Origin: an uncultured Gammaproteobacteria bacterium
GTDB lineage: Bacteria; Patescibacteriota; Patescibacteriia; UBA9934
DNA: 64,000 bases
Direction: 5' to 3'
NCBI GenBank assembly: GCA_964452565.1
Contig: CAYVLY010000001.1
Span: forward strand, 515,053-579,052
Shown: positions 15,677 through 49,856 of the stretch, piece by piece
How positions within the stretch are numbered: position 1 is the first letter of the stretch
Layout: each line of letters opens with the position of its first letter
Translations under genes and position numbers: made by a program
The notes under the pieces: generated by a model
Database searches by the model: none
What the model saw: only the letters and a program-made list of their open reading frames with translations
What the model was told of the DNA's origin: nothing

Positions 15677-15686
15677 AAGATGAGGT

Positions 15687-16460: not shown

Positions 16461-16471
16461 CAACAATATCT

Positions 16472-18579: not shown

Positions 18580-18893
18580 ATACCAAAAGGAGTGACTCTC
18601 CGTTTGAGCTCAACCACCAAACGATGGAAGAAACGGCAGTCACCCCTTTTCATATCACAACGATTGCATTGTGTTGTGTACGCTTGGAACGTTGAGCTCA
18701 TACGCATTATGTCATGTTTACAGTTGATTTTCAACGGGTGTTTTTACTCCCATTCGTTCTTTTTTCCATTTCTCAAAGGCGAGGTTTGCAAATTGATATT
18801 GAGCATCTCGAAGCTGACGAATCTCATCATCGCTCATACCTTTTGCGTCTTCGCCAAGCAAACGCTTGTACTTCGAGAGCGCAATCATAAATC

Positions 18894-20060
18894 TTACGCA
18901 TCATTTCCTGATGCGACCTTACGTAGCATTGCTTGTAGCTCATCCTCGCTGATGTTGTATCGCACCTCCCCAGACCCCCTCTGTACAGCCTCAATCTCAC
19001 GCATCAACTCGATCTGTCGACTTTCGTCGATATGCCCGTAGCCGTAGGAGCCGAATGTAGTTGCTACATTTTCGTGACCAAGGTTCTGGCTTATGGCTTT
19101 TTTCTGCTCCTCGGTCAGCGGCTTTTTCATGAACTCCTTGACCAAAAGATGACGCAAGGAGTGAGGATGGTAGTACGGCTCACCTGCTGCCTTGAAGCGT
19201 TTTTCAAAAATCTTTCGAGCAGGGCTTGCGCTCGACCAGTAGACAGGCTCAACTTCCCCCGTGCTGTAATAACTGATGTTTTCTTTTCCGTTTTCCACCT
19301 TGGTGGCAGGAAACAATGGGTCATTCTCCTTGAATCCACGTTCATCTTTGAGATATTCAAACCATGACAAGAAGTATGTTTGTGCTTCTTTGTATTCAAG
19401 TGGGAATAAAGCCGTTGCAATCCGCTTTGAGAACTTGGTTTTGACACCAAGGTTTGGGTCTTGGTCAACCACCATGTCAACGGGGTCAAACGAGCCCAGA
19501 GGCAAGCTCACGATTGCTGAAATGCGTGCCCCTGTCAGCAGGGTAAAGCTCAAGAGAGCCTTGTCACGCATGTCGATTTCGTTTTTTGGTTCAATCGCTT
19601 CAATGACCTTTTTTACCTGTTCCATTGTGGGAATCTTGCGTCGTTTGCTTTGAAGCGCTTGACGAGACTCCTTTTTGCCAAGTGATAAGTACCCAATATC
19701 TGTTTCTTGGATGGCCTGCCGATACCCCTCCTGCCTTGAGAGCCAGTCGAAGAAACCACGTAACTTGCGTAGAGTGTGGTACTGGTAGCTGATACTTACA
19801 TTTCCACCTCGCTTGCTTTGGCGAGTGGCGAGCCACGTCTTGAACTCAACAGCACGTTTCTTGTTGAACAGATGAAAATCCGCTTCATCCGTAAAGTCCT
19901 GCCATTGTAGAATGGCTCCTTCATACGTCGTGATGGAGCTCTGCGAAAAGCCCTTGGACTGCTTGAGGTAGTCGAAATACTTTCGCTTCATCAGCTCGTT
20001 TTCATAACGCACTTCTTCCTTCGTTTTTGTGGGTTTTGTGTTGTTTGTAGATTGGGACAT
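18894..20060 (-). CDS. Tyrosine recombinase/integrase family protein (copy 2)
   Basis: Identical duplicate of 11516-12682. Confidence 0.7.
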   Translation of the reverse strand: MSQSTNNTKPTKTKEEVRYENELMKRKYFDYLKQSKGFSQSSITTYEGAILQWQDFTDEADFHLFNKKRAVEFKTWLATRQSKRGGNVSISYQYHTLRKLRGFFDWLSRQEGYRQAIQETDIGYLSLGKKESRQALQSKRRKIPTMEQVKKVIEAIEPKNEIDMRDKALLSFTLLTGARISAIVSLPLGSFDPVDMVVDQDPNLGVKTKFSKRIATALFPLEYKEAQTYFLSWFEYLKDERGFKENDPLFPATKVENGKENISYYSTGEVEPVYWSSASPARKIFEKRFKAAGEPYYHPHSLRHLLVKEFMKKPLTEEQKKAISQNLGHENVATTFGSYGYGHIDESRQIELMREIEAVQRGSGEVRYNISEDELQAMLRKVASGNDA

Positions 20061-20065
20061 ATAGC

Positions 20066-20542
20066 TTATGTGTGAGAGAATCCGTTAGTCCTTTCGGGAG
20101 AGGTTTTGAGTAGGCGAGATATTTTGCTGCCGCACGCCTCACACAGACCCGTTCTGCGATACTGTTCGAGGTTGTTTTTCCCTATCCGCTTGCCCGTTTT
20201 TTCTATTCGTTCGGTACCTTCTTTTGGCCTGACACCTTGGCCGCAGGAAAAGCAGAGGAGTTCATCTGGCTTGAGCTTCTGCTTCCTGTCGTTTCGTCGA
20301 GCTTTGAGAAAGTCGTAAAGCACCTGTCCATCAAAGAGCAGAGGCTTCTTGTTGGACATCATGGGTGCAAGCCCTTGCTTCATCCATCGCTGTACAGTTT
20401 TTCGACCAATACCCAACTCGGCGACAATCTCATTGATGTCGTAGCTATGGCGTTTTTTGATCTTGTTGAGCTGGTACCGCTTCATGACTTTGAAAGTTCT
20501 GGAGAGGCTTTCCCATCTCCGTACCTTTATGCAGCCGTTCAA
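20066..20542 (-). CDS. HTH plus zinc-ribbon DNA-binding protein (copy 2)
   Basis: Identical duplicate of 12688-13164. Confidence 0.5.
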   Translation of the reverse strand: MNGCIKVRRWESLSRTFKVMKRYQLNKIKKRHSYDINEIVAELGIGRKTVQRWMKQGLAPMMSNKKPLLFDGQVLYDFLKARRNDRKQKLKPDELLCFSCGQGVRPKEGTERIEKTGKRIGKNNLEQYRRTGLCEACGSKISRLLKTSPERTNGFSHT

Positions 20543-20681
20543 GTGGAGTCGCTGTCAAATCTTTGGGGGTGTGAACAAAACAAACAAAAAATCCCCATGT
20601 TTTACGGGGTTTTTGTGTTTGGGTTATCGACGCTTTACCTTTGTTCAAGTATCGACTTGAACGACCACTTGAACGAGTGTT

Positions 20682-21656
20682 CTATGTACAGCAATCGAGA
20701 CGGGGGTTGAGTCGATAGCGACTACGACCCTTCTTATCAAAAACCGTCTTTGTGCCGTACTCCAATGCTACGTCGTTTATCTGTTTTTTGTATGTTGAAA
20801 TCGTGCGCTTGTTACCGCTTGCAAACTTATCTGCCAAAACACTCAACTCGACCGATGGGTCATCCTTGGTTCGTGCGTTGAAAAGATACTCAATCATGTA
20901 AACGGTCGGCTGATACAGCGATAGTCTCCCTGCAAAGCGTCCTCGCCCAACCTGCTTGAATAGCAGTTCTTTGTCCTTTCTCGCCAGAACGATGTCTTTG
21001 TCCAGCACAATGGAATCTTCGCCATCAATGGCGTAATCCTGCTGGAAATATGTTGCCTCTGCGACAGCATCAATCTCTATACCATTTTCATCAATGTCTG
21101 CGATAAGTTCCAGTACGGGAACGGCATGGATATGAAGCGAAGCTGCCTTGTTGTTTGGATCGGCAAGAAATAGCAGGGTTGGACTACTGCGTGCGATGAT
21201 GCTTGCCAGATATTCTTCACGCAAGTCATTGAGGTTGGCCACAAAAAAGATGGCTCGTGCGGCACCTGTTATTTCCATGGCACCCACATTCCAAAACAAA
21301 CCACTTTGCTTGAGGTGCGCCTCGGTGAGCTCAACGCCCTCTGCGTCAAGAAACAAGGCAAGAAACCGCCGAACATTCAAACTGTATGCGTGGCGATCTT
21401 CTGGCTTGAGGTACTGTCGATCCGTATCTTTCGAGCAGGCTACAAACAGGCGTTCCTCATCTTGTTGTACTGGAAGCAGGTGCCCGTCATAGCACGACGT
21501 GCATAAAGCCTCACTCCTTCGTGCGGTAGTTTGAATCAAGCCGAGTTTGGTCAAAAACTCCGTCACCTCATTTCCAACAAGCTCAACCAATACAGAGCGA
21601 TCCACTTGTGTGCTGGCACCGAAAAGCTGTAGCCCCTGTCGTAGATCGTTTCTCAT
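20682..21656 (-). CDS. Hypothetical cargo protein (324 aa, copy 2)
   Basis: Identical duplicate of 13304-14278. Confidence 0.55.
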   Translation of the reverse strand: MRNDLRQGLQLFGASTQVDRSVLVELVGNEVTEFLTKLGLIQTTARRSEALCTSCYDGHLLPVQQDEERLFVACSKDTDRQYLKPEDRHAYSLNVRRFLALFLDAEGVELTEAHLKQSGLFWNVGAMEITGAARAIFFVANLNDLREEYLASIIARSSPTLLFLADPNNKAASLHIHAVPVLELIADIDENGIEIDAVAEATYFQQDYAIDGEDSIVLDKDIVLARKDKELLFKQVGRGRFAGRLSLYQPTVYMIEYLFNARTKDDPSVELSVLADKFASGNKRTISTYKKQINDVALEYGTKTVFDKKGRSRYRLNPRLDCCT

Positions 21657-22822
21657 ACCTCATTCACGGTATCAATACCCCACTTGATGAGGAGCTTCCG
21701 CACCAACATGTCTTGCTCTCGGCTTTTGAGATTATGCCCTTTGCCATGCGTTACATCGAAGGTCACAGGGCGCCTTTTTCCGTTGATTTTGAAAACGACT
21801 TTGATTTTGGCTTGAAGAATATCAAAGAAATCAAAGTTGATATTGCGATACTGGAGCATTTCTTTCATGCTTTCAACGCCACCTTTTGCATCTGATCCAA
21901 TGGTCAAGTACACCTTGCTCCCATTCGGACGAAATCGCAGGCTCATTGCCTTGAGTTGAACTGATTCGACGTTTTCTTCCTCCGCTATGGTCAGCGGATC
22001 AGGGTCGAGTGATTTGAGTACGTCGAGCCTATATGAGCTTGTTTTACAGTCTTCATAACGCAGACTCCACACATCTTCAATAACGGCACGTTGCAACCCC
22101 TCAACCTTTGTTTGTCCGCCCTTGACTTTCACTTCGAGTTTATTTCCGTTCAGCCAGTATTGAATATACGCTCGTAGAATAGGACGTCTTGGCGTATCAG
22201 GTTTGAGCTTATCATCTGTCTCAAACTTCAAGTCGTTTACAAAGCGGTCTTCTACATAGGCGACCATGCACAAGCGGTCAGGTTTTTCGATGAGCTTGAT
22301 TTTGCACCGTGTCTTTCGTCGACCAAATGTGAACATGTTCTGAATAGACTGTTCAAGTGTCGTGACGCCGTTGGTCAAAGTCGCCACTTCAACATCTGGG
22401 ATGACAACACTTTTCCAGCTGCAAATGTTATCGAGCGCATGTTCGTCAACCGAAGTATGGAAAATGTCCTCGTGATTGATAAAGAACCACAAGGCTCGGG
22501 AGTGATGATTGGGGAGTTCGTCGTACACCTTCCAGTCCACGGACTTTTGCAAGCGTTCTGCGGTTTTTTGTAGATACGCTACGGAAGCCCAGCCAGACAT
22601 GTCGCTGATGTCATTGAGTGCCGTGAGAACCTCACCATGCTTTTGCTCATCCTGCGTATCGACTACCACCAAAAATCGGTCAGCACGAGCTTCATCTTCT
22701 TCATCGTCGTGTATAATAAAATCCAACTCCAACTTTTTGGCGAACTCACCAAGGAGTGCGGGGTCAAACTTCATCAATAACGATGATGGATCAAAACTTC
22801 CTGTACCAGCCATATGTTGCAA
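21653..22822 (-). CDS. Hypothetical cargo protein (389 aa, copy 2)
   Basis: Identical duplicate of 14275-15444. Confidence 0.55.
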   Translation of the reverse strand: MQHMAGTGSFDPSSLLMKFDPALLGEFAKKLELDFIIHDDEEDEARADRFLVVVDTQDEQKHGEVLTALNDISDMSGWASVAYLQKTAERLQKSVDWKVYDELPNHHSRALWFFINHEDIFHTSVDEHALDNICSWKSVVIPDVEVATLTNGVTTLEQSIQNMFTFGRRKTRCKIKLIEKPDRLCMVAYVEDRFVNDLKFETDDKLKPDTPRRPILRAYIQYWLNGNKLEVKVKGGQTKVEGLQRAVIEDVWSLRYEDCKTSSYRLDVLKSLDPDPLTIAEEENVESVQLKAMSLRFRPNGSKVYLTIGSDAKGGVESMKEMLQYRNINFDFFDILQAKIKVVFKINGKRRPVTFDVTHGKGHNLKSREQDMLVRKLLIKWGIDTVNEV

Positions 22823-22853
22823 AGATTTGTCAACTTATGGTAACTTACCAAAT

Positions 22854-23054
22854 ATGCAAGATCGGTCAACTCCACGAGAGACAAAAAAGCTCCCAGAGTT
22901 GTTGACTCTCAAAGAGGCGGCTGATTTGTTGCATTGTCACCCGAATACGTTGCGTAACTGGGACAACAAGGGCATCCTTGTTGCCGTGCGTCTGGGGTCA
23001 CTGGGTGATCGCAGGTACAAAAAGCAAGACATATTGAAACTGATGGAGAAATAA
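22854..23054 (+). CDS. Xis/AlpA-like HTH protein (copy 2)
   Basis: Identical duplicate of 15476-15676. Confidence 0.6.
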   Translation: MQDRSTPRETKKLPELLTLKEAADLLHCHPNTLRNWDNKGILVAVRLGSLGDRRYKKQDILKLMEK

Positions 23055-23064
23055 AAGATGAGGT

Positions 23065-23838
23065 ATGCAGGTCGAACAAAGTAAGAATCTTGATCAGCAA
23101 TTTTGTGAACATGGAAACTTCCTATTTTCATGTCCAGAATGTAAAGAAAGAGGTAGGGATATAATTTTGAGAATAGCTGACAGGAGATCGGTGCCTGATA
23201 CTGAACAGGTTGAAAAAGTCAGGAATCACATTGAGAAGGTGGTACTGGGCGCTCTTTCAATGTTTGTTTCAAGGTTCGAGACTTATTGCAGAAAAGGAAA
23301 CGAACTCGAGATTGTCATAGTTGATGCGACCGATCAAGATTTTGGTTCTGGAGAAGTGAAAGGTACTACTATTGACATCCCGTTGTTAGAAGAGGAAAGG
23401 ATGAGCTTCATTTTGCAAAGAATGGTTGAGAAATCTGATGACATTACGAAAAAACAACTCGAAAACATTGGTATTGCTATCACTTGTTCGACGATATTAC
23501 ACGAAGCAATACATAGTTTTTTGGAGTCAAAGCCACACTCGAGTCTTCATGAAAAGATAGAAGCAATGAGTAGTATTCCTGATCCAGAAGGGATATTTTC
23601 CACACTATGCGATGAAGCCATTGCATATTCCATGCAATCCATTTTTTCAGAAACTATAGAGCCCTTTGGAAATACTGCTCCAAGAGTTGACCAAGATAAG
23701 GAAGCTAGTCTGGTCGCTGTAAGAAAAAAACTAGGTATGGCCATCGAAAAAGATATGCGAAAGGTGTTATATGGAAGGCTGGACACAGAATCATTCTTTG
23801 ATATTCTTATACAAAAAGCAAAAACACTAACTCAATAA
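23065..23838 (+). CDS. HExxH-motif protein (copy 2)
   Basis: Identical duplicate of 15687-16460. Confidence 0.4.
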   Translation: MQVEQSKNLDQQFCEHGNFLFSCPECKERGRDIILRIADRRSVPDTEQVEKVRNHIEKVVLGALSMFVSRFETYCRKGNELEIVIVDATDQDFGSGEVKGTTIDIPLLEEERMSFILQRMVEKSDDITKKQLENIGIAITCSTILHEAIHSFLESKPHSSLHEKIEAMSSIPDPEGIFSTLCDEAIAYSMQSIFSETIEPFGNTAPRVDQDKEASLVAVRKKLGMAIEKDMRKVLYGRLDTESFFDILIQKAKTLTQ

Positions 23839-23849
23839 CAACAATATCT

Positions 23850-24338
23850 ATGTCAGAGACACGACGTGGACAAGAGCATTCCCCCGATTCAGCAAACGAA
23901 ATAGTCGAATTGCAACGAGAACAGATGAAACAAAACTTTGATGAAATTGCAGTAAAAGCCTTGTTCCAGTTGAGGAGAAGTTTGTTAGGGAAAGATTATC
24001 GAAACTTGCCCAATTTGAGAGCGCTTCCTGAACCGTTTGAACCAAACGCAGATATATCACATGATACACTCATGAAAATATCATCTGATTTTATTACAGA
24101 AATGAGGTTGCAAATATCAGCTATCATTGCGGAGGCAACGAGAAGATTATCTTTGTATGATCAAAAGAAACAAGAGTATCCAATTGATGCAAACATGGCA
24201 CTTGAGGAGGTCTTGATTGAAAAAGCTTTTGATTTCTTGCGAGACCAAAAAAGAATAATCAGCAACAACCGCGGTACACTTGGTGGATGGATGAAGACAA
24301 TAGTAGAAAGAGAGAAAAATATAGTTGAGCATGACTAG
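23850..24338 (+). CDS. Hypothetical protein (162 aa, copy 2)
   Basis: Identical duplicate of 16472-16960. Confidence 0.45.
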   Translation: MSETRRGQEHSPDSANEIVELQREQMKQNFDEIAVKALFQLRRSLLGKDYRNLPNLRALPEPFEPNADISHDTLMKISSDFITEMRLQISAIIAEATRRLSLYDQKKQEYPIDANMALEEVLIEKAFDFLRDQKRIISNNRGTLGGWMKTIVEREKNIVEHD

Positions 24339-24443
24339 TCGAGAGAAAAGGGTTGCATTTTTTGAGATCCAAAAATATGCGGCAATGTCTCCGACCATTG
24401 CTTGATTTGCTGGATCAGGGTGTTCCAATGCTCAATACAGTAG

Positions 24444-24453
24444 GTCACCAAAA
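24444..24453 (+). other. att core copy 3 (attR: element right end / chromosome)
   Basis: GGTCACCAAA followed by the chromosomal hairpin AGAACACGC-tccc-GCGTGTTCTTTT. Confidence 0.7.
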
Positions 24454-24496: not shown

Positions 24497-25126
24497 CTAC
24501 TTCTCCTGATTCTGCAACCACTTCACACCAAGATACACAAACGGCGTATCGATCGCGGCAAACGCAATCTTGAAAAGATAATATGGAACAGCAAGTGTAA
24601 TAATAAATCCAAACGTGAACTTATCTGATATCCCGTAGAATGCTATTGTCATAAATAAAAGCGTATCGATCGCTTGCGAAACAAAAGTTGAAAGATTGTT
24701 TCTAAGCCAGAGCATCTTGCCTTTTGTCTTCTTTTTCCAAAACTCAAACGCCCACACATCATGCAACTGTGCCACGGCAAAAGCGATAATGCTGGCAATA
24801 ATCATTCGCAGTGAAGTCCCAAAAATCGTGACATAAGCATCATTAAACTCATAGCGCTCATGCGGGCCAAGAACTACAAATAATGCGGTATAGGCAAAAG
24901 TGATGATTAGTGCGACAAGTCCAATGATTACAAATTGCCGTGCGACTTTTTTTCCAAATACATCTGCAACAATATCTGTGATCAAAAATGTGAGCGGAAC
25001 CATGAATATCCCTACAGATACCGAAACACCAAGTAGAGTTGTGATTTTCCCTCCTAAAAGATTCATGCCGATCAATAATCCAATAAATACCCCTAATAAT
25101 AACTTTAACTTAAAATCTTGTTTCAT
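24497..25126 (-). CDS. YhhQ/DUF165-like membrane protein (putative queuosine-precursor transporter)
   Basis: 209-aa multi-TM protein. The resemblance to the YhhQ family is from memory, not from a search. Confidence 0.5.
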   Translation of the reverse strand: MKQDFKLKLLLGVFIGLLIGMNLLGGKITTLLGVSVSVGIFMVPLTFLITDIVADVFGKKVARQFVIIGLVALIITFAYTALFVVLGPHERYEFNDAYVTIFGTSLRMIIASIIAFAVAQLHDVWAFEFWKKKTKGKMLWLRNNLSTFVSQAIDTLLFMTIAFYGISDKFTFGFIITLAVPYYLFKIAFAAIDTPFVYLGVKWLQNQEK

Positions 25127-25285
25127 ATGTTTTGATTACTTATTAGAGCAACCTATAAAGGTTAGCAGAAAAACGATTTCTAGCATAACACCCGTTAAAA
25201 TCCACTATGTTATAATTAATCCAGAAGAAAGAGCGGAGGGTTCTTTCACCAACAATCAACCATCACCTACGTCTGGAGGTTTGAT

Positions 25286-25802
25286 CTTGTCAAAGGGTAA
25301 GAAGAAACCCAAACCAGCCAATACCTCAGGCTATCGACTAACCGACCACCACATCCAGGCTCGGGTGAGGGGGGGACAACGTAGTGGTAATATAGTACGA
25401 CTTCCGGGACGTTATCACAGTGCCTACCACACACTGTTCGATGTCCTGAATGTAGATGAAGCTCAGGAGTTCATCGACTGGCTTGCAGGTCTCGATTCTA
25501 TACCCACCAAGGCCGAGGTTGCGAATATGCGGGTCGACATCATGCACGGCCGCCTTCGCGCCGTACCAAAACAGCTTGATCTCGATGAAAACGGCAATAT
25601 CCCTGACGTCCTTCCCAGCAACATACGATCTGCCTGGGGAATACTCTTTGCCGGACTCACCGCAGGTGAAGCAAAAGAGCTCCTCGAAGTAATCGTGGTT
25701 CCGGGAAAAAGATGGGGTCAAGCCAGCTTCATCCGCGCCAGACGTGGTGTCCGAGCATCCAGCCATAGGACTACTGCAGGACTGGCCAAAGTATTCGCTT
25801 AG
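25286..25802 (+). CDS. GC-rich hypothetical protein (TTG start after GGAGG)
   Basis: Only the GC-rich 3' part of track ORF 24900-25802 is counted; the 5' part is antisense to the yhhQ-like gene. A terminator identical to the one after 26477 follows. Confidence 0.35.
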
Positions 25803-25818
25803 CTGACCACCCACTCTC

Positions 25819-25858
25819 CGCGCCCGCGGCCTCTCCAGGCTCGCGGGCATCGTGTTTT
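25819..25858 (+). terminator. GC hairpin terminator (GCCCGCGG...CGCGGGC plus T-run), copy 1 of 2
   Basis: The same roughly 30-nt sequence recurs at 26489-26530. Confidence 0.5.
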
Positions 25859-25991
25859 AAAAATCTTAGTCGTATTGATATAAAAAACACAGTTTCATTA
25901 AGTCCACGATCGTGGACTTAATGAAACCATTTGCCACCAAAACGCCTGGCCCTTTGATGAACTCAAATTGGCTTAAACCTAGTACAAGGGG

Positions 25992-26020
25992 TTGACAAAG
26001 GGGCTTTTCTGTGGTAGTTT
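25992..26020 (+). promoter_or_regulatory. Sigma70-like promoter (TTGACA-17-TAGTTT)
   Basis: Upstream of 26061-26477. A GGAGAG RBS follows. Confidence 0.35.
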
Positions 26021-26060
26021 TATTCTCTTCTTCGCCAACCCGACTCCCAAGGAGAGACCA

Positions 26061-26477
26061 ATGAAGAAGAAGTTGGAAAGAGTCGCGATCGCGCTGTTCG
26101 TACTACTCGTGCTCGGCGCCATCGGCCTGAGGGTGTCCTGGGGCCTCAACCCCAAGGCCAAGGCCCTGCGAGCTGAGTTCGGTGCGCCCCTCAAGGACTT
26201 CGAGGGCGGGTGCACCCAGGCCTATCTCGCCGACCGGGAGAGCCTGTACGCTCTCAGCTCAGGCGATAAGTACACAGAGCCGGAAGGCCCGGACGGCGAC
26301 CAGATCATGCTCCAGGCCGTGGCCAAGCGCAACGACATACGCGCCCAGTACGACCTCAACCTCGCCCAGGCCGCATTCTACAGCATCATCTGGGCCACGC
26401 ACAGCACCTGGCTCTGCAACATCGACAGCGGCACAACCGTCACCACCATGTTCGGCAAGCCGCCGGAACAGCAGTAG
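26061..26477 (+). CDS. GC-rich secreted/membrane-anchored hypothetical protein
   Basis: Inner ATG of ORF 25992-26477. It has an N-terminal hydrophobic signal (VAIALFVLLVLGAIG). Confidence 0.45.
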   Translation: MKKKLERVAIALFVLLVLGAIGLRVSWGLNPKAKALRAEFGAPLKDFEGGCTQAYLADRESLYALSSGDKYTEPEGPDGDQIMLQAVAKRNDIRAQYDLNLAQAAFYSIIWATHSTWLCNIDSGTTVTTMFGKPPEQQ

Positions 26478-26488
26478 CGTTCATCCCC

Positions 26489-26530
26489 CTCCGCGCCCGC
26501 GGCCTCTCCAGGCTCGCGGGCGAAGTGCTT
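26489..26530 (+). terminator. GC hairpin terminator, copy 2 of 2
   Basis: Same sequence as 25819-25858. Confidence 0.5.
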
Positions 26531-26551
26531 TCTGAGATATAATCAAAACAT

Positions 26552-26956
26552 ATGAAAGAAGTTTTGATTTTCTTTTTTATCTACGGACTGTTTGGCTGGA
26601 TCTTAGATACTAGCTATCGATCAATTCAAGCCAAGCGATTCAACCAAGGTAGCTTTTTAAACCTTCCCTTTTGCACAAGCTACGGGCTTGGTGGGTTGTT
26701 TTTGATCACGATTAGTGATTGGATAACTGAATTCGATCTCATTACACAGTTCGTTATTCTTGCGATCAGCCTGGCAGCACTCGAGTATGCGCTAGGATTC
26801 ATCTCGCATCTCACTTGGAAGAAGCGCTATTGGGATTATCGAAAAGCAAAATTCAACATCAAGGGCTACACAGACCTAGAGCATGCGATCTATTGGGGAC
26901 TCCTCGGTCTATTTTTTATACACATACTACATCCGTGGGTCTCATCATTTTTCTAA
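26552..26956 (+). CDS. Small multi-TM membrane protein (hypothetical)
   Basis: 134 aa, AT-rich native composition, hydrophobic. Confidence 0.5.
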   Translation: MKEVLIFFFIYGLFGWILDTSYRSIQAKRFNQGSFLNLPFCTSYGLGGLFLITISDWITEFDLITQFVILAISLAALEYALGFISHLTWKKRYWDYRKAKFNIKGYTDLEHAIYWGLLGLFFIHILHPWVSSFF

Positions 26957-27065
26957 AAGCATCACGCCCGGACGAAGAACTCGTCCGAGCGTACGTTGTA
27001 TCAGTGACCTGCGATTCCGCCCACACTGCGGTTGGGCGTTCTCCAGCGAAGTCCCATGACTCCTC

Positions 27066-27899
27066 CTAAAGGAACGGGTGGATGATTGGAAGCGGACGCT
27101 CCCGACATAATTGATACATTCTATCTTTGCGCTCTGCCGGTGTTTCAGATTGCAGTAGGATCGATTCCAGCCGAACTTGCTCCAGGACGCGTCCTTCCAA
27201 GGCGTAAGCTGCTACCTGGCGTATTGCCGCCATGCGAAGACCATCTGTGAACTTGATTTCCCTAAACTGACGAAGGTGTGCCTCAATCTGCCTGATGAGA
27301 AGATGGTGCTGAGCTTGAGACTCTTCGACCCGCTGCTGGAAATCAACTGGTTGCTCGAGCTCTGCTTCTACTTCTGACCAGAGTGTCACTTTCCAACCTT
27401 CAGGCAGATCAGCCTCTTCGCACATACATTGGCAATAGTAGGTGAGTTCTGCCTGATCAACAGTCCAGCCCCAAGTACGGCGAGGTTCTAAATCGGGGAG
27501 GAAAATCTCAACCGACACCTCAGCCCCCACTCTCTGAAGGGCGTCCGATAACTCTTGAGCGCGACGAACTACTTTCCGATCCCGAAAGAAGTAGGTCTTC
27601 TTCAAATCCGGAATCAACTCTTCGCGACCCGTGTAAGTCCCAAGGCATGAAAATCCGATGAATTGAATCTTCTGCCCCTCCATGAGATCAAGCACCTGAA
27701 CAGGATCTACGATATTCATCGGATCGTGCTGTTCAAAGTGCTGAACAACCTGAAAGTACTTGATAGCATCGGGCAACGCCTTACGCCACGCAGATCGAAA
27801 TGCCTTTGCTGGTGTTTGAACAGTGCCATCCTGCAAAATTCGAGCCATACCCCACCTCCTGAATGCGTGGGGTTCTAGAATTAGAACCGCACACACCAA
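27066..27899 (-). CDS. Hypothetical protein (277 aa), paralog of 27914-28783
   Basis: It shares an N-terminal pattern with its neighbour (FIGFSCLGTYTGREEL versus FLTFTCSTINAEKMF), and the sizes are similar. GC is intermediate. Confidence 0.4.
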   Translation of the reverse strand: MVCAVLILEPHAFRRWGMARILQDGTVQTPAKAFRSAWRKALPDAIKYFQVVQHFEQHDPMNIVDPVQVLDLMEGQKIQFIGFSCLGTYTGREELIPDLKKTYFFRDRKVVRRAQELSDALQRVGAEVSVEIFLPDLEPRRTWGWTVDQAELTYYCQCMCEEADLPEGWKVTLWSEVEAELEQPVDFQQRVEESQAQHHLLIRQIEAHLRQFREIKFTDGLRMAAIRQVAAYALEGRVLEQVRLESILLQSETPAERKDRMYQLCRERPLPIIHPFL

Positions 27900-27913
27900 A
27901 AGGCGAACAATTA

Positions 27914-28783
27914 CTACTGATACCCTTCATTATCCACGCCACAAAAATATAAAACTGGAAAGTCCTCAGAATAACGCTCTTGAACTAGAGGTTGATACAT
28001 AGATGTTCGCAAATCGCTCGGCTTCTCGTTTTGTATCAACAAAGCGTTTGGCATAAACATGTAGATCCACAATGCCTGTACAGCATATTCGGAAAACTTA
28101 CGTCTGATCCAATCTTGTAACACCGCATCCTTTGGTCGCTTCAAGCCATCAAAGTACTTACCTGATGTAAACTGAGTTTTTAATTGCCGCAGCTCCCAAT
28201 CAAGATCTGATTTTCTAGTGTAATCTTGAATCTCGTCGAGAACCTCCTCATATTCAGATTCAAAACTCCTATTTTGCGTGCGCTCTATTTCCTTTTCAAA
28301 CTCATACCAACTTACAACCTCACAAACGCATTGAATATCACGCTTTTCGATCCATATCTCTAAAAACTTTCTATACAAATCCCAACGGTTCTGAAACTTT
28401 TTCCAAAGCATTTCCTTTTGTAGCTTCAAATCAGAAAATTGTCTTGTATATATGTAATATGGATCAGTATTTCCGATTAGAATGCGTAGCTTCGTCTTTG
28501 GATATACTTTTCCGATCTCCTGCATAATTGTGGCCACGCGATCGATATCATTCTCTAGATTATTCCCTTTTGGATCTAATGCAACATATTCCCAAGGAGC
28601 TTTACTAAACATCTTTTCTGCATTGATAGTCGAACAAGTGAAAGTGAGAAAGACCAGTTCATCACCTCTCTCAACAATTGATGCAATACGCTTACGCGAA
28701 AACTCATAGGATTCATTTTGAGATCCCTTTACATCGTACTTACAAATAATATTCATGATTCGATCCGTTGCGTTATCGCCCAT
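27914..28783 (-). CDS. Hypothetical protein (289 aa)
   Basis: ORF with native AT-rich composition. It is the first gene of a two-gene minus-strand unit. Confidence 0.45.
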   Translation of the reverse strand: MGDNATDRIMNIICKYDVKGSQNESYEFSRKRIASIVERGDELVFLTFTCSTINAEKMFSKAPWEYVALDPKGNNLENDIDRVATIMQEIGKVYPKTKLRILIGNTDPYYIYTRQFSDLKLQKEMLWKKFQNRWDLYRKFLEIWIEKRDIQCVCEVVSWYEFEKEIERTQNRSFESEYEEVLDEIQDYTRKSDLDWELRQLKTQFTSGKYFDGLKRPKDAVLQDWIRRKFSEYAVQALWIYMFMPNALLIQNEKPSDLRTSMYQPLVQERYSEDFPVLYFCGVDNEGYQ

Positions 28784-28846
28784 ATTTTATAGACTTAAGA
28801 CCCCTCTCTTCCGAGAAGGGGTCTGTTTGCTATTTTAAATCAAATA

Positions 28847-29161
28847 TCAAGCAGGACTCTTCTCAGAAGATGAATCTGCATGATGATGCACTCGGTCCAA
28901 AATTGTTTTGTATCCACTCATACCTTTATTTAGCCATTTTGCAATGCGAGCCACAGTTGTCGAACTCATTCCAGTTGTCTCTTGAACATCAACGTAGGAA
29001 GATCCTTGATGCAACATGCTTGCTGCTTTAAGTCTATTTGCGAACTCGATAATTTCTTGGTCGGTCAAAAGATCTCGAAAGAAATTTTGAGCTTCTTCAA
29101 CGTTTTGAAGCTGTAATATAGCCTCAAACAACTCTTTTGACTCTTTTGTTTTCCAATCCAT
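28847..29161 (-). CDS. TrpR-like YerC/YecD family protein
   Basis: 104 aa with LLTDQEIIEFANRLKAASML..., typical of the YerC family. Confidence 0.6.
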   Translation of the reverse strand: MDWKTKESKELFEAILQLQNVEEAQNFFRDLLTDQEIIEFANRLKAASMLHQGSSYVDVQETTGMSSTTVARIAKWLNKGMSGYKTILDRVHHHADSSSEKSPA

Positions 29162-29257
29162 AACAATACTATACTAACACAATACTTTAGTCAAGTAAAG
29201 TGCCTCAGAAGCAAGAAACCCCGTCACACGGACGGGGTTAGGAGAATGTTGAGCAAA

Positions 29258-30733: not shown

Positions 30734-31786
30734 TTATTTTGCTGAGCCTAGGATTCCATTCCGATAAAGCTCGATCACCACCATTACCGAAGCCAAAATG
30801 GTGGGTCCAATAATGAATCCAATCGGTCCCAACCACTGCAGCCCTCCAAGAATCGAGATCAAGATTAGTAATTGATTCATCCGAGTCTTTGCTCCAACAA
30901 TAAATGGTGAGATGAGATTATCAACCGTGCTCACTGCCACAACTGACCAGATCAACAGTCCAAGTGCTGCCCATGGCTGACCAACAATTAATAAATAGAT
31001 AATTGCTGGGACTAGAATAACAGCTGTTCCAACCATTGGGACCTGAGAAGCAATAACCACAAGCGACCCCCAAAGTATCGCACCTGGTACTCCAAAGATT
31101 GTCATCCCGATCGTAGCCAGCGTTGCCTGCACTACCGCAACAACTAATGCCCCAAAGACCACAGATCGAACTGTGTTTGAAATTCGTGCAACAATCTTTG
31201 CGTCCAAACTGTCCTTAAACGGACTTATATCAAGTGCCAACTTATAGATCTCTTCCCTATCATGCAAGAAATAGAAAAGCGCAATGAAAAAGATGAACGT
31301 ATTGATAATCAGCTTTGCTGTACTTGATAGAACTGCGCCAACATTCTCAGCTGCCCAGTTTGCAGCAGACTTTCCAAGCTCCACAAAATCAATTGATTGA
31401 ATCTCCTCTTGAATCGGCACAGGAAGAACCTGGAAAATCGCATCTGTTGACTGTTGCAATCCTTCCATCCACCCGTCATCTGCAATCGAAACCTCTACAA
31501 TCTCTGACGCCTGCTGAACCATCAATACTGAAATGCCAAATAAAGGCCCCACAACAATGACAAGCACGCCAAGTAGCATGATAAGTGCTGAGAGCTTTTT
31601 ACTACGAACCAACCTGCGTAACCGCGCTTCGATCGGCCCAAGAATAATCGCAAACACACCGGCGGTAACAAGCACCAACGCAAATGGTGCAATAACCTGC
31701 CAATAGAGATATAGGACGATCACACTCGCGACGATAAAAAACCATCGAATTTGTGATGCTGTAGGTTTTACTTTGGCCATATGCAT
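30734..31786 (-). CDS. AI-2E family transporter (PerM/UPF0118-like permease)
   Basis: 350-aa polytopic membrane protein with the AI-2E-like hydrophobic pattern. Confidence 0.65.
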   Translation of the reverse strand: MHMAKVKPTASQIRWFFIVASVIVLYLYWQVIAPFALVLVTAGVFAIILGPIEARLRRLVRSKKLSALIMLLGVLVIVVGPLFGISVLMVQQASEIVEVSIADDGWMEGLQQSTDAIFQVLPVPIQEEIQSIDFVELGKSAANWAAENVGAVLSSTAKLIINTFIFFIALFYFLHDREEIYKLALDISPFKDSLDAKIVARISNTVRSVVFGALVVAVVQATLATIGMTIFGVPGAILWGSLVVIASQVPMVGTAVILVPAIIYLLIVGQPWAALGLLIWSVVAVSTVDNLISPFIVGAKTRMNQLLILISILGGLQWLGPIGFIIGPTILASVMVVIELYRNGILGSAK

Positions 31787-31910
31787 TGATTATAGCGCAG
31801 AAAGCAGCATGCCGGCCATAGCTACGTAGTAGCGACGGCTGGAACGCAGAACACAGAACCCGGGATAACTTAACTGGGTTCTGAAGTCTGGCGTCTGGGT
31901 TCTGCCGCTC

Positions 31911-31939
31911 TTGACATTTCGCCAACATCTGCGTATTCT
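31911..31939 (+). promoter_or_regulatory. Sigma70-like promoter (TTGACA-17-TATTCT) inside the TIR element
   Basis: Exact -35 and 17-bp spacing. Confidence 0.4.
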
Positions 31940-32021
31940 TTCAGTGTGGAGCCACTCCACACCCTCCCCCTCGATTTCTTCGAGGGATCCCCACCCTCAA
32001 CTCCATCCCCTGGAGGTTCAC

Positions 32022-32417
32022 ATGAGTCCCGCTGATACTTGCCCCACCACCATGCTTGAAGCCGCTCTTGTGAGCTTCATCATGTGCTTTGTCACACGAC
32101 CCCACTGCGTTCGTCTCGACGTCATAGAATGTGATGGCAACAACCTCCTGGTAGATCTGGTAGTTCATCCAGAGGATGTGGGTCGCGTGAAGGGTCGAGG
32201 GCAAGACCGCCTGAGGCTGATCCACAAGATAGCTGGCGAAATCGCTAAACGTCACAGGATGCGCCTGCGCAGCATAGAGATCATCGACGATGATATTGGG
32301 CCTGAACCCGAGGTGTGCTACGCGCAAATCACGCCGACCGTGGCCCAGGAAACGCCCCTGCCCCAAAAACGCGGGCGCGTGCGCCTCGTGCGCCCCGAGC
32401 AACCCGAGGCCGCCTGA
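32022..32417 (+). CDS. GC-rich KH-domain (KhpA-like) RNA-binding protein, second KH paralog
   Basis: 131 aa after the RBS GGAGG. The KH_4-like core is LVDLVVHPEDVGRVKGRGQDRLRLIHKIAGEI (GxxG); compare the native KH gene at 47633-47995. The overlapping minus-strand ORF is judged spurious. Confidence 0.5.
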   Translation: MSPADTCPTTMLEAALVSFIMCFVTRPHCVRLDVIECDGNNLLVDLVVHPEDVGRVKGRGQDRLRLIHKIAGEIAKRHRMRLRSIEIIDDDIGPEPEVCYAQITPTVAQETPLPQKRGRVRLVRPEQPEAA

Positions 32418-32560
32418 CACAACCCATGCTTCAACCCTCGCCCTGCCGGCACTCCGGTGGGGCTTCGTGCATCTTACAGAACACAGACTACAGAACTCAG
32501 TCGAGCCTTTTCCTGCGTTCTGCTTTCTGCGTTCTGCTTTCTGCGCTATAATAAACCCAT

Positions 32561-33253
32561 ATGGAGGCACTTTCTTACTATGCAGTGATGTCACTTATCT
32601 TGGCACTCACCTGGATACTTATTTTTGTTACCAAGGAGAAACTTAGAACAGAGATGCTTTTGATCAGCATCTTCTCAATCTTCTTGCTGCCAATCTGGAT
32701 TGCAACCCAGGCAGTCGGCCAAGGAGCAGTGCAAGAGCTCTTCTCGTCACTCTCTTTCCTTGACTTAATCTTCCTGTTCTCAGTATCTGGAATAGCAGCA
32801 ACAATTTTCCATGTCTTTTTTGGAAAGCACTACGAAAACATGCCAAAGCCAAAGCGCAAAAAAGACCGTGACATAATTGCGCATATTTGGATCTTGGCAA
32901 TCTTCTTTGGACTGCTCCTATTTGTTTGGACAACTATACTACTTGCAGTTGTCTTCGGGCTCTCAACTCCAGTGGCCCTACTGATCGCCGCGATCATACT
33001 CACTGTTTATATTACAAGTCACAGACATGATCTACTAGGAGACGCTATTTGGAGTGCAATCTTTACAGCATTTATCGTATTTGTCGCATCAACTCTTGGA
33101 TCAGCATTCACTCAAACGACTCCGGCAATTCCCTTTATTCAAACAGGTGAGCTGATTCAAGGAGTTTCTGTTGATCTTATTTATTGGGCATTGGCACTTG
33201 GACTTGTACTTGGTCCGCTTTATGAATTTATCCGACGAAAGTTGTTAAAGTAA
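32561..33253 (+). CDS. Polytopic membrane protein (hypothetical)
   Basis: 230 aa with about 6 hydrophobic segments. Confidence 0.45.
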   Translation: MEALSYYAVMSLILALTWILIFVTKEKLRTEMLLISIFSIFLLPIWIATQAVGQGAVQELFSSLSFLDLIFLFSVSGIAATIFHVFFGKHYENMPKPKRKKDRDIIAHIWILAIFFGLLLFVWTTILLAVVFGLSTPVALLIAAIILTVYITSHRHDLLGDAIWSAIFTAFIVFVASTLGSAFTQTTPAIPFIQTGELIQGVSVDLIYWALALGLVLGPLYEFIRRKLLK

Positions 33254-36666: not shown

Positions 36667-37013
36667 CGGTCGCGAATAGCCATATTCCACAATCCGTCAT
36701 CCCGAGCGACCGAGCGTTTATGCGACCTGCCTGCCGGCAGGCAGGGGAGCCGAGGGATACCAAAAGCACTCCAAATGGGGTGCTTTTAAAAAACAAAAAC
36801 CCCCTTTAAGCTGCAGCCAAGAAGATATATATCCTGTATGGGATCAGCCGGAGCCAAAGTCATACAGGTCATATACCCCCATGCTTGTCGTGGCTGCAGG
36901 TCAAAAGGGGTGTCACCATGACGAAGTATAATAACACGCATTTCTCCCCATGTCAACCCTTTCGCCCACCTGTAAAAAGTACCTGAAAATAGCCCAAAAA
37001 TTGGCTAAGGCCC

Positions 37014-37042
37014 TTGACTAAAGGGCTTTTCAATGATATATT
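37014..37042 (+). promoter_or_regulatory. Sigma70-like promoter (TTGACT-17-TATATT)
   Basis: It shares TTGAC(A/T)AAAGGGCTTTTC with the promoter at 25992. Confidence 0.4.
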
Positions 37043-37080
37043 TCTAGGCCCCTTCAACCCCCAACCCGCACGGAGTTCCC

Positions 37081-37791
37081 ATGCGACATTTAATCTTTCT
37101 TCTAGCTCTCACCACTGCTCCCGCGCTCGCCGCCGACCCCACCTGCCCGGATGGACAGAGGGTCACGACCTTCATGGAGCTGAACCGATACGAGGACATC
37201 CACAGCACCCCTTCCCACTGGAGCGTGACCATCCGCTACGGCAACATGCGCTCCGGCTCCGGAATGCCAGAGTGGGAGCTCGATGCCATCCGTCAGAGCC
37301 TCGGACTGCACAACATCAGCGATCTGATCGGCGTGCCCTTCTGCATGGAAGGCTACGCCTGGAAGCTGGCCCTCAACGAGAAGGCAGTGGAGTCCCTGGC
37401 CGAGCAGAGCGGTACTTCCTACATGACGCCCACCAGCGACAAGTTCCTCGACATGATCACCGACGGCCTGGTCAGCGGCCAGCGGGTCGAGCTCCGGGAA
37501 ATCACCGAGATCGACCAGCTCAACCTCGCTGCCCAACTCTTCACCGGCGGCTTCGCCCAGCGCTACCTGCGCCCTGAGGTCTTCGAACGCCTCAAGGAGC
37601 AGGTCAAGACCAAGAGCGCGGGTCGTCTGACGGTCCAGAAGGCCAGCCGCGAGGAATTCGCGTTCACCAGCTCCTGCCTGTGCGGGACCGCGTACCTCAA
37701 GCTCGTCAACATCTCCACCAGAGAGACCCACCAGCTCTTCTCCATCAGCGAGCTGCTGTCGATCGTCTCGCTGGACCCCGGCCGCAAGTAG
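37081..37791 (+). CDS. GC-rich secreted hypothetical protein (signal peptide LALTTAPALAADP)
   Basis: 236 aa after the RBS ACGGAG. GC-hairpin terminators follow at 37812-37895. Confidence 0.45.
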   Translation: MRHLIFLLALTTAPALAADPTCPDGQRVTTFMELNRYEDIHSTPSHWSVTIRYGNMRSGSGMPEWELDAIRQSLGLHNISDLIGVPFCMEGYAWKLALNEKAVESLAEQSGTSYMTPTSDKFLDMITDGLVSGQRVELREITEIDQLNLAAQLFTGGFAQRYLRPEVFERLKEQVKTKSAGRLTVQKASREEFAFTSSCLCGTAYLKLVNISTRETHQLFSISELLSIVSLDPGRK

Positions 37792-37896
37792 CCGGCGCTC
37801 ACCCTCACCCCCACCCCCGAAGGCCCCTACGGTCTCGCGGTCGTGGGGGTTCTTCTTTTCTGAATAACAAAACAGCCCCGAAGGGCTGCTTTTCTC

Positions 37897-38508
37897 TTAT
37901 TTGATTATCTTATCAACCAATCCGTACGCAAGAGATTCCTTTGCTGTTAGGAACTTATCGCGTTCAGTATCATCTGCAACCTTCTTTAATGGCTGGCCGG
38001 CATGCTTTGAAATGATCTTATTGAGAGAATCCTTTACAGCCAGAATGCGCTCAGCGTGAATCTTGATATCTGTTGCCTGCCCTTGGACCCCACCAAGCAC
38101 CTGGTGAATCATAACTTCTGAGTTTGGAAGAACAAATCGCTTACCCTTCTCTCCTGCAGTTAATAGCACCGCTCCCATTGATGCCGCCATTCCAACACAG
38201 ATGGTTGAAACACTTGGCTTGATGTATTGCATGGTGTCATAGATCGCCAACCCGGCAGTAACTGATCCACCCGGAGAATTAATGTATAGCTTGATATCCC
38301 GCTCCTGATCCTGGCTTTCCAAAAATAGCAACTGAGCAATCACAGCATTTGCTACTGTGTCATCAATAGCACTTCCAAGAAAGATGATGCGATCTTTCAG
38401 AAGTCTTGAGTAAATATCATATGCCCGCTCACCATGATGTGTTTTCTCAACAACGGTTGGAATCAACACCTGCGAACGAATCTCTGGAGTAATGTTTTCT
38501 TTATTCAT
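37897..38508 (-). CDS. clpP: ATP-dependent Clp protease proteolytic subunit
   Basis: ClpP motifs ([19 protein letters not shown], active-site region [11 protein letters not shown]). The track ORF extends to a TTG at 38544, but ATG at the complement of 38506-38508 is the likely start. Confidence 0.9.
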
Positions 38509-44926: not shown

Positions 44927-45018
44927 TTGACAAAAACCAAAATCAGGAGTATATTCCATAGTTGCCGGATCGGGGACTCGCCCCTTTCTAGCGCCTTCAC
45001 CTTACGAAAGTAGGTGAT
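44927..45018 (+). repeat. Duplicated promoter/leader (copy 1; TTGACAAAAACCAAAATCAGGAGTATATT ... AGGTGA-ATG)
   Basis: About 90% identical to 45872-45962. It includes a TTGACA-17-TATATT promoter. Confidence 0.6.
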
Positions 45019-45807
45019 ATGTCGCCCCGAAATACTGTCAAAATCCCCTTGAGCTGGCTAGTTGCTGCCATCCTTGTGGTCATCGTAGCCCTGGTAACTC
45101 CTACTGCATCCCTGACCCTCTCCGACCTGGTAGAGGACCTTCAATCAATGCAGCAAGGCACCACTGCACATGAACTCGCTCAGCGAGACGCTCGGTTGAT
45201 TGAATGGGAGAAGCAAAAGCAAGAACGACAAAAAGCGTTTCAGCAACTTCGTAAGGAGCAGGATGCAGCATACCGAAAGATGCGTGCAGACCCCTATCAC
45301 GCCGCAGTGCCTGTTGCTCTGCTGAAAGAGCCCGAGGACCTGATTGGCTCAATGACCCCATGGTTAAATGAGCCGTGTGCACACGAATCCAACTGTGTTG
45401 AAATGCGATTTCACGAGAAACTCCGCATCCACAATCGTGAGGCATACTTCGGAGCGATCCACTTGGAGAAAACCAATCCTGTGGATGGAGCTACCAGCCT
45501 CGACAAGGGCGAGACGCTCACAGTCTATGCCTGCGGAATCGAAATTCCGCTCTATGACACAGTGGCTGAAAAGGCCATCGAGGCTCAAACCAACCACGCG
45601 CGAATGGAGCTCGTACGAAGCCAGCTGGACAAAACCTGGTACGTCGTGAAGGTCGAGGCATACAACGGGAGTATGTGGGGCACCACCCATACATACGACT
45701 GCAACGATACAACCTATGTGTGCTCATACACTTTGGACACTTGGCCTGGGCGCTATTCGCCCCCGGCCACCGAAAACCTGGCAGGACTCATTCTCCGTGG
45801 AGGATAG
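45019..45807 (+). CDS. GC-rich secreted hypothetical protein
   Basis: 262 aa with an N-terminal TM/signal. It is followed by the palindromic terminator ACCGGACC-cacgt-GGTCCGGT plus T-run. Confidence 0.45.
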   Translation: MSPRNTVKIPLSWLVAAILVVIVALVTPTASLTLSDLVEDLQSMQQGTTAHELAQRDARLIEWEKQKQERQKAFQQLRKEQDAAYRKMRADPYHAAVPVALLKEPEDLIGSMTPWLNEPCAHESNCVEMRFHEKLRIHNREAYFGAIHLEKTNPVDGATSLDKGETLTVYACGIEIPLYDTVAEKAIEAQTNHARMELVRSQLDKTWYVVKVEAYNGSMWGTTHTYDCNDTTYVCSYTLDTWPGRYSPPATENLAGLILRGG

Positions 45808-45871
45808 TCAGACGGAAGCCAGGACGCGCGACCGGACCCACGTGGTCCGGTTCTTCTTTTTGGGTAATTCA

Positions 45872-45962
45872 TTGACAAAAACCAAAATCAGGAGTATATT
45901 CCATAGTTGCCGGATTGGGGATCAGCCCTCTCTAGCACCTTCACCTTACGAAAGTAGGTGAG
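45872..45962 (+). repeat. Duplicated promoter/leader (copy 2)
   Basis: Same as 44927-45018. Confidence 0.6.
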
Positions 45963-46724: not shown

Positions 46725-46875
46725 ACGGACGCCAGGACCTTCGACCGGGCCCATGTGGTCCGGTTCCTTTGTTCTTAAAAACCGCCCCAACCCCTTCTCC
46801 TTCCTGAACGAAGTGAGGGATCTTCTTGAGAAGACCTCTCGCTACGCTCGAGGTGGTGCTGAGTGTAGACGGTTT

Positions 46876-48363: not shown

Positions 48364-49856
<1,493 letters not shown>

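Follow-up and report, generated by a model that had tools for sequence, protein, structure and literature searches.

KhpA (YlqC, UPF0109; PF13083, NF002761) is a small type II KH RNA-binding protein and a partner of KhpB/EloR/Jag, and in KH domains it is the GXXG loop that defines nucleic-acid binding. Here we describe a locus at which a divergent relative of KhpA is encoded between two matching inverted arms. It lies in a stretch of 64,000 nucleotides (contig CAYVLY010000001.1 of assembly GCA_964452565.1; hereafter the window, numbered from its first letter) and consists of a 765-bp segment with a 19-bp inverted repeat at its ends and, inside it, a gene for a KhpA-like protein of 131 residues (the KH-like gene and protein below). 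The original prediction had taken the segment for a transposable element. We consider it quite probable that the segment is instead a resident single-gene transcription unit and not an insertion, flanked by twin outward promoters of leaderless type whose arms have been homogenised locally.

Like KhpA, the KH-like protein has a single KH domain of ~75 residues with the order alpha-beta-beta-alpha-alpha-beta, and its alignment to KhpA models and to the 7xqc structure of KhpA keeps the register. It differs from KhpA in its replaced GXXG loop (GRGQ here; GRVxNG or GKGR in relatives), in its N- and C-terminal extensions, in a sequence that evolves about five times faster than those of its neighbours, and in its position at another locus, away from rpsP/rimM, in a genome that also has a canonical KhpA.

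The published signature of bacterial leaderless genes is a -10 box ~6-10 nt before the start codon (PMC6028130). The promoters flanking the segment share with such leaderless-gene promoters (GeneMarkS-2 'group C', PMC6028130) the fixed short distance from -10 box to start, the lack of a Shine-Dalgarno (SD) site and the position ahead of the first genes of operons. They depart from the group C pattern in their 8-nt spacing and full TATAAT box, often with TGn in relatives, and in the heptad repeats that fill the upstream region in the close clade of Uhrbacteria.

Three classes of repeat also resemble parts of the locus. As in miniature inverted-repeat transposable elements (MITEs), the segment is shorter than 1 kb and has a terminal inverted repeat (TIR) and no transposase; unlike MITEs, it shows no target-site duplication (TSD), no multiple copies in the window or the genome collection searched and no presence/absence polymorphism among the recovered relatives, the gene that it holds is conserved and subject to purifying selection, and the putative promoters of the neighbouring genes form its ends. 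With fimS-type invertons it shares inverted repeats around a promoter-bearing segment and homogenised arms, whereas here a single orientation was seen, no invertase is adjacent and inversion would not switch the flanking genes. The heptad arrays at the locus, like the repetitive extragenic palindromes and bacterial interspersed mosaic elements (REP/BIME), are short, intergenic and dispersed, often form inverted pairs, and are gained or lost between close relatives; in contrast to REP/BIME they are built of 7-nt tandem units of two sequence types, and no transposase of the REP-associated (RAYT) type was seen.

Residency of the locus in relatives

Relatives of the KH-like protein were found by a full HMMER scan of 1.8 billion representatives together with a three-sequence profile; a word-indexed search with the single open reading frame (ORF) found nothing. 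The full scan returned one protein of 56% and one of 35% identity, and the profile search added three. Looking up homologues of the flanking membrane protein extended the set to relatives with as little as 60% identity, named Candidatus Uhrbacteria or Patescibacteria. The genes that frame the slot in the window are:

30734-31786, minus strand: AI-2E family transporter (permease) gene (Pfam PF01594, E 1.2e-46)
32561-33253, plus strand: gene for a 230-aa membrane protein, the first of an HSP20-VanW-CNNM run, 84-87% identical in close relatives

The gene order is AI-2E permease, KH-like gene, 230-aa membrane protein, HSP20 and VanW, with a gene for a TrmB-family regulator adjacent and likewise conserved in relatives. 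Contigs reaching the slot are L004 (GCA_900089805.1), L005, L006-8, L009/L022/L023/L024 (GCA_018673485.1), L010, L026/L027 (GCA_000994165.1) and L028 (GCA_043817975.1). In every one of them the KH-like gene is next to AI-2E or immediately precedes the membrane gene or HSP20, and its orientation is identical in all recovered loci. Among the recovered relatives that span the slot, down to 60% flank identity, there is no empty site, i.e., no AI-2E and membrane gene without the KH-like gene between them. A metagenome scan with the family alignment gave two loci only, one of them already among these relatives, and viral contigs held no relatives of the protein. In the searches run here the family was recovered only from a clade of Candidatus Uhrbacteria.

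The arms as probable promoters of the flanking genes

The perfect inverted repeat pairs ATTATAGCGCAGAAAGCAG at 31789-31807 (plus strand) with its exact reverse complement at 32534-32552. The original prediction had recognised this pair, which matches at 19 of 19 positions, although it set the right arm at 32535-32553.

31789-31807, minus strand: left arm, reading CTGCTTTCTGCGCTATAAT on the minus strand; -10 box TATAAT at 31794-31789, then 8 nt and the permease ATG
32534-32552, plus strand: right arm, CTGCTTTCTGCGCTATAAT; -10 box at 32547-32552, then 8 nt and the ATG at 32561
26525-26554, plus strand: third copy of the promoter form, GTGCTTTCTGAGATATAAT-N8-ATG, at a CmpB-like membrane gene (ATG 26552)

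Read outward, each arm gives CTGCTTTCTGCGC-TATAAT-N8-ATG of the adjoining gene. Since both divergent genes use TATAAT-N8-ATG facing outward, an inverted repeat arises necessarily. The exact form TATAAT-N8-ATG occurs five times in the window, always on an ORF start (26552, 31780, 32561, 40042 on the minus strand, and 56876), and near-matches number 27 against 14 expected. Many other AT-rich genes of the window have TGnTAnAAT at the same distance, without an SD site. The presence of the same form at 26525-26554, ahead of the CmpB-like gene, indicates that the arm is a type of promoter and not the end of an element. The longer form TTCTG-N1-3-TATAAT-N8-ATG is found also at 26530, in L010 (TTTCTGCTTTATAAT-N8-ATG ahead of HSP20) and in L022 (TTTCTGATATAAT-N8-ATG ahead of the membrane gene). 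All five lineages whose contigs span both promoters (window, L004, L023, L026 and L028) have TATAAT-N8-ATG on both flanking genes. Judged by sequence, the arms are the putative core promoters, of leaderless type, of the two divergent flanking genes, whose mRNAs would then be leaderless.

The segment had been described as lying precisely between the starts of the flanking genes, at 31786 and 32561. The right-hand start stands, but 31786 is the start of the longest ORF of the permease. Its true start is likely the ATG at 31780-31778 (M3 of that ORF), 8 nt past the -10 box: TATAAT-N8-ATG occupies 31794-31778 in the window, and the L004 orthologue is called from the ATG equivalent to 31780.

At up to 3 mismatches the 19-mer has 3 matches in the window, against 0.02 expected from dinucleotide-preserving shuffles; these are the two arms and one promoter copy with 3 mismatches. 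The repeat extends imperfectly to 36 nt at 86% complementarity (31777-31812 / 32529-32564), and this extension takes in CATATGG, which holds the start codons of both flanking genes. The palindromic CATATG, containing the start codons, is common to both sides, 5 nt beyond each arm. No TSD is present at the arms, where the abutting bases are CATTG (left) and AAACC (right). A duplication of TA or AT was also considered and rejected: it is not separable from the palindromic ATTATA/TATAAT ends, and removal of the segment would leave ~25 nt between the start codons and no promoters. The exact 19-mer was seen once in an unrelated Patescibacteria metagenome-assembled genome (L014, 7390-7408), ~70 nt upstream of a tRNA gene and on the strand that fits a TATAAT promoter.

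Organisation of the KH-like transcription unit

The promoter, the GGAGG ribosome-binding site and the 131-aa ORF that had been reported inside the segment were all found, as was its high GC content (55-62% against 46% for the 64-kb window).

31911-31939, plus strand: sigma-70-type promoter of the KH-like gene, TTGACA-17-TATTCT, with 10/12 consensus matches
31944-32021, plus strand: C-rich 5' leader with hairpins H1 (31944-31962), H2 (31968-31986) and H3 (32001-32015)
32022-32417, plus strand: gene for the 131-aa divergent KhpA-like (type II KH) protein; GC content at third codon positions (GC3) 0.66, degenerate GXXG loop GRVKGRGQD
32440-32463, plus strand: terminator-type hairpin, GCCCUGCCGG/CCGGUGGGGC, -19.6 kcal/mol, weak U tract, covarying in relatives

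The promoter is almost invariant across four close relatives, and promoter, two leader hairpins and terminator-type hairpin are common to the six relatives whose intergenic sequence was read. A strict consensus scan for terminators made no call at 32440-32463. The leader has a minimum free energy of -31 kcal/mol (z -3.7), and independent folds of relatives give the same hairpins. The hairpins were compared through separate folds and a direct count of pairs, since they came out misaligned in a MAFFT/RNAalifold consensus. H2 pairs completely in 7 loci, where its stem takes 5 different forms; at 5 of its 7 pairs both sides have changed. In the close clade CUCCA of H3 pairs with UGGAG, and the 3' arm of the hairpin covers 4 of the 5 bases of GGAGG (32012-32016). 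Rfam searches produced no credible match in the segment, whether run at gathering thresholds on the whole window or at permissive E-values on 31700-32650.

Two departures were seen in relatives. The L006 leader has an extra hairpin, CCTTTGGATACCGTTCAAAGG. Upstream of the KH promoter, L006 (1-140), L007 and L008 each open with sequence that bears no relation to the other loci, and none of the three contigs reaches farther; an insertion or rearrangement at this point is possible.

The account that we propose joins these parts. The KH unit consists of its own sigma-70 promoter, a C-rich leader of ~80 nt with three hairpins, the 131-aa KhpA-like gene and the terminator-type hairpin, and sits between two divergently transcribed genes, each with a promoter that is leaderless in type (TATAAT, 8 nt, ATG). 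In the lineage of the window, heptad repeats (TTCTGCN) lie upstream of each -10 box, and local recombination between the two sides would have made 13 further bases identical, to give the perfect 19-mer. The last leader hairpin, H3, would occlude the SD site, and the leader may control translation in this way.

The KH-like protein

Several comparisons relate the KH-like protein to KhpA, with family-model scores below the curated cutoffs. NF002761 (NCBIfam KhpA-type, 77 residues) matches residues 11-81 at E 3.6e-5 and 23.7 bits, against a curated cutoff of 106; all five family members tested match it, all far below cutoff. PF13083 is touched by four of the five relatives, and also by L026 and L028, the relatives scoring 19-22 bits against a cutoff of 32.1. 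The family profile aligns in register with the L026 protein and matches the KhpA structure 7xqc at E 1.8e-6, and phmmer over the whole library matched KhpA-like P0006-8 at 1e-4 to 1e-3.

The window also encodes a canonical KhpA-like paralogue:

47633-48187, minus strand: canonical KhpA-like gene (PF13083, E 1.1e-20)

BLASTP aligns the KH-like ORF with it in register at 29% identity over 72 aa (E 9e-6). The alignments to the native KH gene and to the KhpA profiles that had been proposed as a check are thus in register in the first case and sub-threshold in the second (NF002761, E 3.6e-5). The description of the gene as a second, divergent copy of the native KH gene agrees with this similarity, except that the native gene spans 47633-48187 and not 47633-47995.

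The AlphaFold model, built on an 8-row alignment, has a predicted local distance difference test score of ~90 over residues 11-90. Its elements (H8-21, E31-37, E41-48, H50-57, H59-77 and E81-89) form the alpha-beta-beta-alpha-alpha-beta arrangement of a type II KH domain. The top Foldseek matches are the KH domains of Era, KhpB/EloR (root-mean-square deviation 2.5 A) and ribosomal protein S3, at probabilities of 0.99-1.0 but E-values of only ~5e-3 to 1e-2.

The canonical GXXG loop is present in no family member. The window copy has GRVKGRGQD, and its relatives have GRVKGRVxxG, GRMRGAKQ or IIGKGRKH; true KhpA rows carry GKRG and GRQG at this loop. The KhpA-like KH reading of the original prediction is supported by fold, profile and in-register alignment, but the hidden Markov model scores lie below cutoffs and the canonical GXXG is missing. 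Sequence comparison and the structural model together support a protein that is KhpA-like in fold and ancestry, yet not a KhpA equivalog. It may bind RNA, or pair with KhpA/KhpB, despite having no canonical GXXG. PADLOC and PHROGs gave no meaningful match and hence no link to a known defence system or phage, and exact look-ups of the 131-aa and 168-aa versions of the ORF returned no record.

Evolution of the gene and of the arms

The KH-like protein is 47-48% identical to those of close relatives, compared with 86-92% for the membrane protein and HSP20. The ratio of nonsynonymous to synonymous substitution rates is 0.16-0.39 for the KH-like gene and 0.03-0.06 for its flanks; the gene is under purifying selection, yet fast-evolving. 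Its history also differs from that of its surroundings. L004 and L006 have flanks 95-98% identical in amino acids (synonymous divergence 0.19) and KH proteins only 61% identical, whereas between L006 and L022/L023 the KH proteins are 82% identical and the flanks no more than 84%. In a sliding comparison the exchanged tract, ~450 bp in length, begins at the leader and runs through the whole ORF. This discordance and the extent of the tract show that the cassette was replaced by recombination at a fixed locus: leader and ORF were exchanged between lineages, and the flanks stayed put.

For the arms, each flanking ATG was taken with the 100 nt that precede it, and the two sides were compared in the five lineages whose contigs cover both promoters. 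In L026 and L028 the identity between sides is limited to TATAAT and (C/T)ATATG, to which L023 adds TGA; the window arms share 19 perfect bases, and in L004 the identity extends to about 76 bases. The heptads differ in sequence between the arms of L004 (GCAGTAT/GCAGTAG) and those of the window (GCAGAAA/GCAGAAC). Both L004 arms contain a 24-nt perfect palindrome that occurs nowhere else among the loci compared, and this private palindrome points to conversion from arm to arm. The sequences thus compared indicate that the long arms arose recently, each in its own lineage, and were homogenised across the two sides, as in concerted evolution, and are not inherited transposon ends.

Several observations weigh against the reading of a resident unit between twin promoters: (i) The 19/19 identity of the window arms and the 78-nt arms of L004 exceed what a promoter consensus needs, and some process of recombination or selection acts on the arms. 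(ii) For a strictly leaderless start, a gap of 8 nt from -10 box to ATG is on the long side. (iii) The GC3 of the KH gene is 0.55-0.81 in every lineage, compared with 0.26-0.43 in the flanks; GC-biased conversion at a hot spot of recombination might account for it. (iv) The KH gene uses an SD site and its neighbours do not; with its GC3, this makes it look foreign. (v) Pfam has no match for the window copy of the KH-like protein.

Heptad arrays

The sub-terminal TTCTGCG/CGCAGAA repeats noticed earlier are present, as arrays of 7-nt period inside both ends of the segment. At the KH locus they are:

31842-31861, minus strand: heptad array, CAGAACN on the plus strand; inverted pair with the array at 31874-31904
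31874-31904, plus strand: heptad array (CTGNNNN)x5, just ahead of the KH-like gene's -35 box
32470-32500, minus strand: heptad array with the plus-strand reading CAGAACA CAGACTA CAGAACT, within the 3' part of the KH transcript; inverted pair with 32513-32543
32513-32543, plus strand: heptad array (CTGCGTT CTGCTTT)x2, upstream of the membrane-gene promoter

Of the four sites that arrays of the form (CTGNNNN)n occupy in the window (0.26 expected by chance), three belong to the KH locus; the site away from the locus is 5418-5448. There are seven such sites in 20 kb of L004, and three of the L004 arrays start directly after the stop codons of unrelated genes. Arrays in these two relatives include:

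L004: 7628-7658, 11697-11720, 15982-16012, 16770-16807 and 20122-20152
L006: 5613-5636, 7877-7914 and 9371-9401

The L004 array at 20122-20152 seems to lie inside an SMC gene. The arrays are of two sequence types, almost always intergenic and in inverted pairs at the KH locus. They are confined to the close clade, and L005, L026 and L028 have none. L023 has one type on its left side and the other on its right, and no co-variation of heptad type with KH allele was found. The arrays are the only part of what had been called the TIR that behaves like a dispersed repeat; we know of no earlier description of heptad-repeat arrays of this kind. Short-read contigs from SRR8146440/41 that carry the flanking genes break in the arrays (L001 ends at 31903; L002 and L003 start at 32516), which suggests heterogeneity of repeat length or of alleles in the population. 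The KH ORF is not on record for the SRR8146440/41 assemblies.

In the window, L004 and L023 each of the three promoters has an array ahead of it, the KH locus holds 3 of the 4 arrays of the 64-kb window, and a gene for a TrmB-family regulator is conserved next door. These facts would suit arms that serve as a shared operator, where one factor, a TrmB-type regulator or the KH-like protein itself, acts on the arrays to co-regulate the permease, the KH gene and the membrane/HSP20 operon. The KH-like protein would in that case bind single-stranded DNA or RNA, and selection for equal binding would keep the arms alike, which is compatible with the explanation that we prefer. However, L005, L026 and L028 have the same genes and promoters without arrays, both array types occur within one genome without tracking the KH allele, and several arrays lie at the 3' ends of unrelated genes. 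We regard a shared operator as unlikely. A bolder version is more doubtful still: the arrays, with NCAG every 7 nt on one strand, would be a lineage-specific dispersed element and the fast-evolving, recombining KhpA paralogue their dedicated binder, in a self-contained module that insulates or tunes neighbouring transcription units and is kept GC-rich by frequent gene conversion.

Inversion, transposition and recent gain as alternative readings

An inverted repeat that encloses a promoter-bearing segment could also be an invertible cassette, in which recombination between the arms flips the KH gene with its promoter and directs read-through into one flank or the other. The concerted arms (in L004 78 nt at 94%, with their shared private palindrome) and the short-read contigs of the source sample that break inside the segment would fit such a cassette. 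Yet only one orientation occurs in all recovered loci, and the contigs break in heptad arrays and not at arm boundaries. L004, L023, L026 and L028 have no recombinase within about 6-10 kb, and the only recombinases among the window ORFs scanned lie ~20 kb off, in a tRNA-linked integrative element. Flipping would moreover leave the flanking promoters unchanged. We consider an inverton very improbable.

On the MITE-like reading, a non-autonomous TIR transposon would have carried the KH gene, promoter included, to its place between the flanking genes. Behind this idea stand the perfect 19-bp inverted repeat, a GC-rich, SD-led gene in an AT-richer genome, and arms to which a dispersed, lineage-specific repeat, the heptad arrays, contributes. 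Several observations speak against a mobile element. There is no TSD (CATTG against AAACC) and no empty site. No paired copy of the 19-mer was found elsewhere in the window or in 596 Gb of genomes, where a search returned 10 single hits in unrelated genomes, about the number expected by chance. The gene occupies the same slot in the same orientation in all recovered relatives, including the arm-less L026, L028 and L005. The arms hold -10 boxes and abut the flanking start codons, so that they read as flanking promoters, and excision would strip both genes of theirs. The window ORFs that were scanned include no DDE transposase. The idea of a non-autonomous TIR element with cargo retains hardly any credibility.

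Recent horizontal gain of a GC-rich gene that landed between two divergent promoters, to which a GC3 of 0.66 against ~0.4 in the neighbours, SD-dependent initiation unlike theirs and other GC-rich orphan islands in the same window might point, is scarcely to be entertained, because gene, promoter and leader hairpins occur even in relatives in which identity of the flanking proteins is down to 60-62%, so that any acquisition predates the clade, and the later exchange between lineages is replacement at a resident locus.

Other features of the window

A second inverted repeat of 35 nt and 83% (25113-25147 / 26531-26565), with a perfect 17-nt core AATCAAAACATATGAAA that includes both start codons, encloses a GC-rich island between a Vut_1 transporter gene and the CmpB-like gene. 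In L023 the Vut_1 gene is close to TrmB, so that window ~25127-29200 appears to be a variable insert. GC-rich islands of up to 72% GC lie at 2000-4500, 6900-8400, 8700-9700, 25300-26540, 37000-38000 and 53600-54600; their ORFs have a GC3 of 0.86-0.89 and, where checked, SD-type sites, and none of the seven tested has a Pfam match. Two GC-rich orphan ORFs are each followed by a copy of the 33-nt GC-rich hairpin sequence CTCCGCGCCCGCGGCCTCTCCAGGCTCGCGGGC (25816-25858 and 26489-26531). Direct repeats of ~100 and 74 nt, 89-91% identical and 4.87 kb apart (1768-1981 and 6635-6847), enclose a GC-rich island, and each copy holds the palindrome CCATTTCTTTGCTGCTTCAAAGAAATGG.

A unit of 7,378 bp is present at 9687-24452 in two tandem copies without a single difference. 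It starts inside a tRNA-Glu gene (9620-9694), and its genes include one for a large serine recombinase (9654-11201) and one for a tyrosine integrase (11516-12682), with the recombinases duplicated at 17-20 kb; the arrangement reflects either a tandem integrative element or an error of assembly. At 44927-46773, tandem paralogous genes (45019-45807 and 45963-46724) have duplicated promoter (TTGACA...TATATT), leader and terminator-like sequences. The 16S rRNA has one mismatch at 49249-49270 to the target of the TM7-905 probe. An assignment to Saccharibacteria on this basis was rejected and the match is not diagnostic, since protein homologues, those of the flanking membrane protein among them, are named Candidatus Uhrbacteria.

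Implications

To our knowledge, gene regulation in bacteria of the Candidate Phyla Radiation (CPR) is almost unstudied. The present locus changes no major question, and each of its points is testable in CPR bacteria. It documents a KhpA-like paralogue of a small clade of Candidatus Uhrbacteria in which the GXXG loop has been lost, the structured leader covaries, and leader and ORF are swapped together. It exposes a family of heptad arrays, without an Rfam match at this locus, that come and go between close relatives. In genomes with leaderless promoters, divergent gene pairs automatically give rise to transposon-like inverted repeats, and scans for TIRs will flag them.

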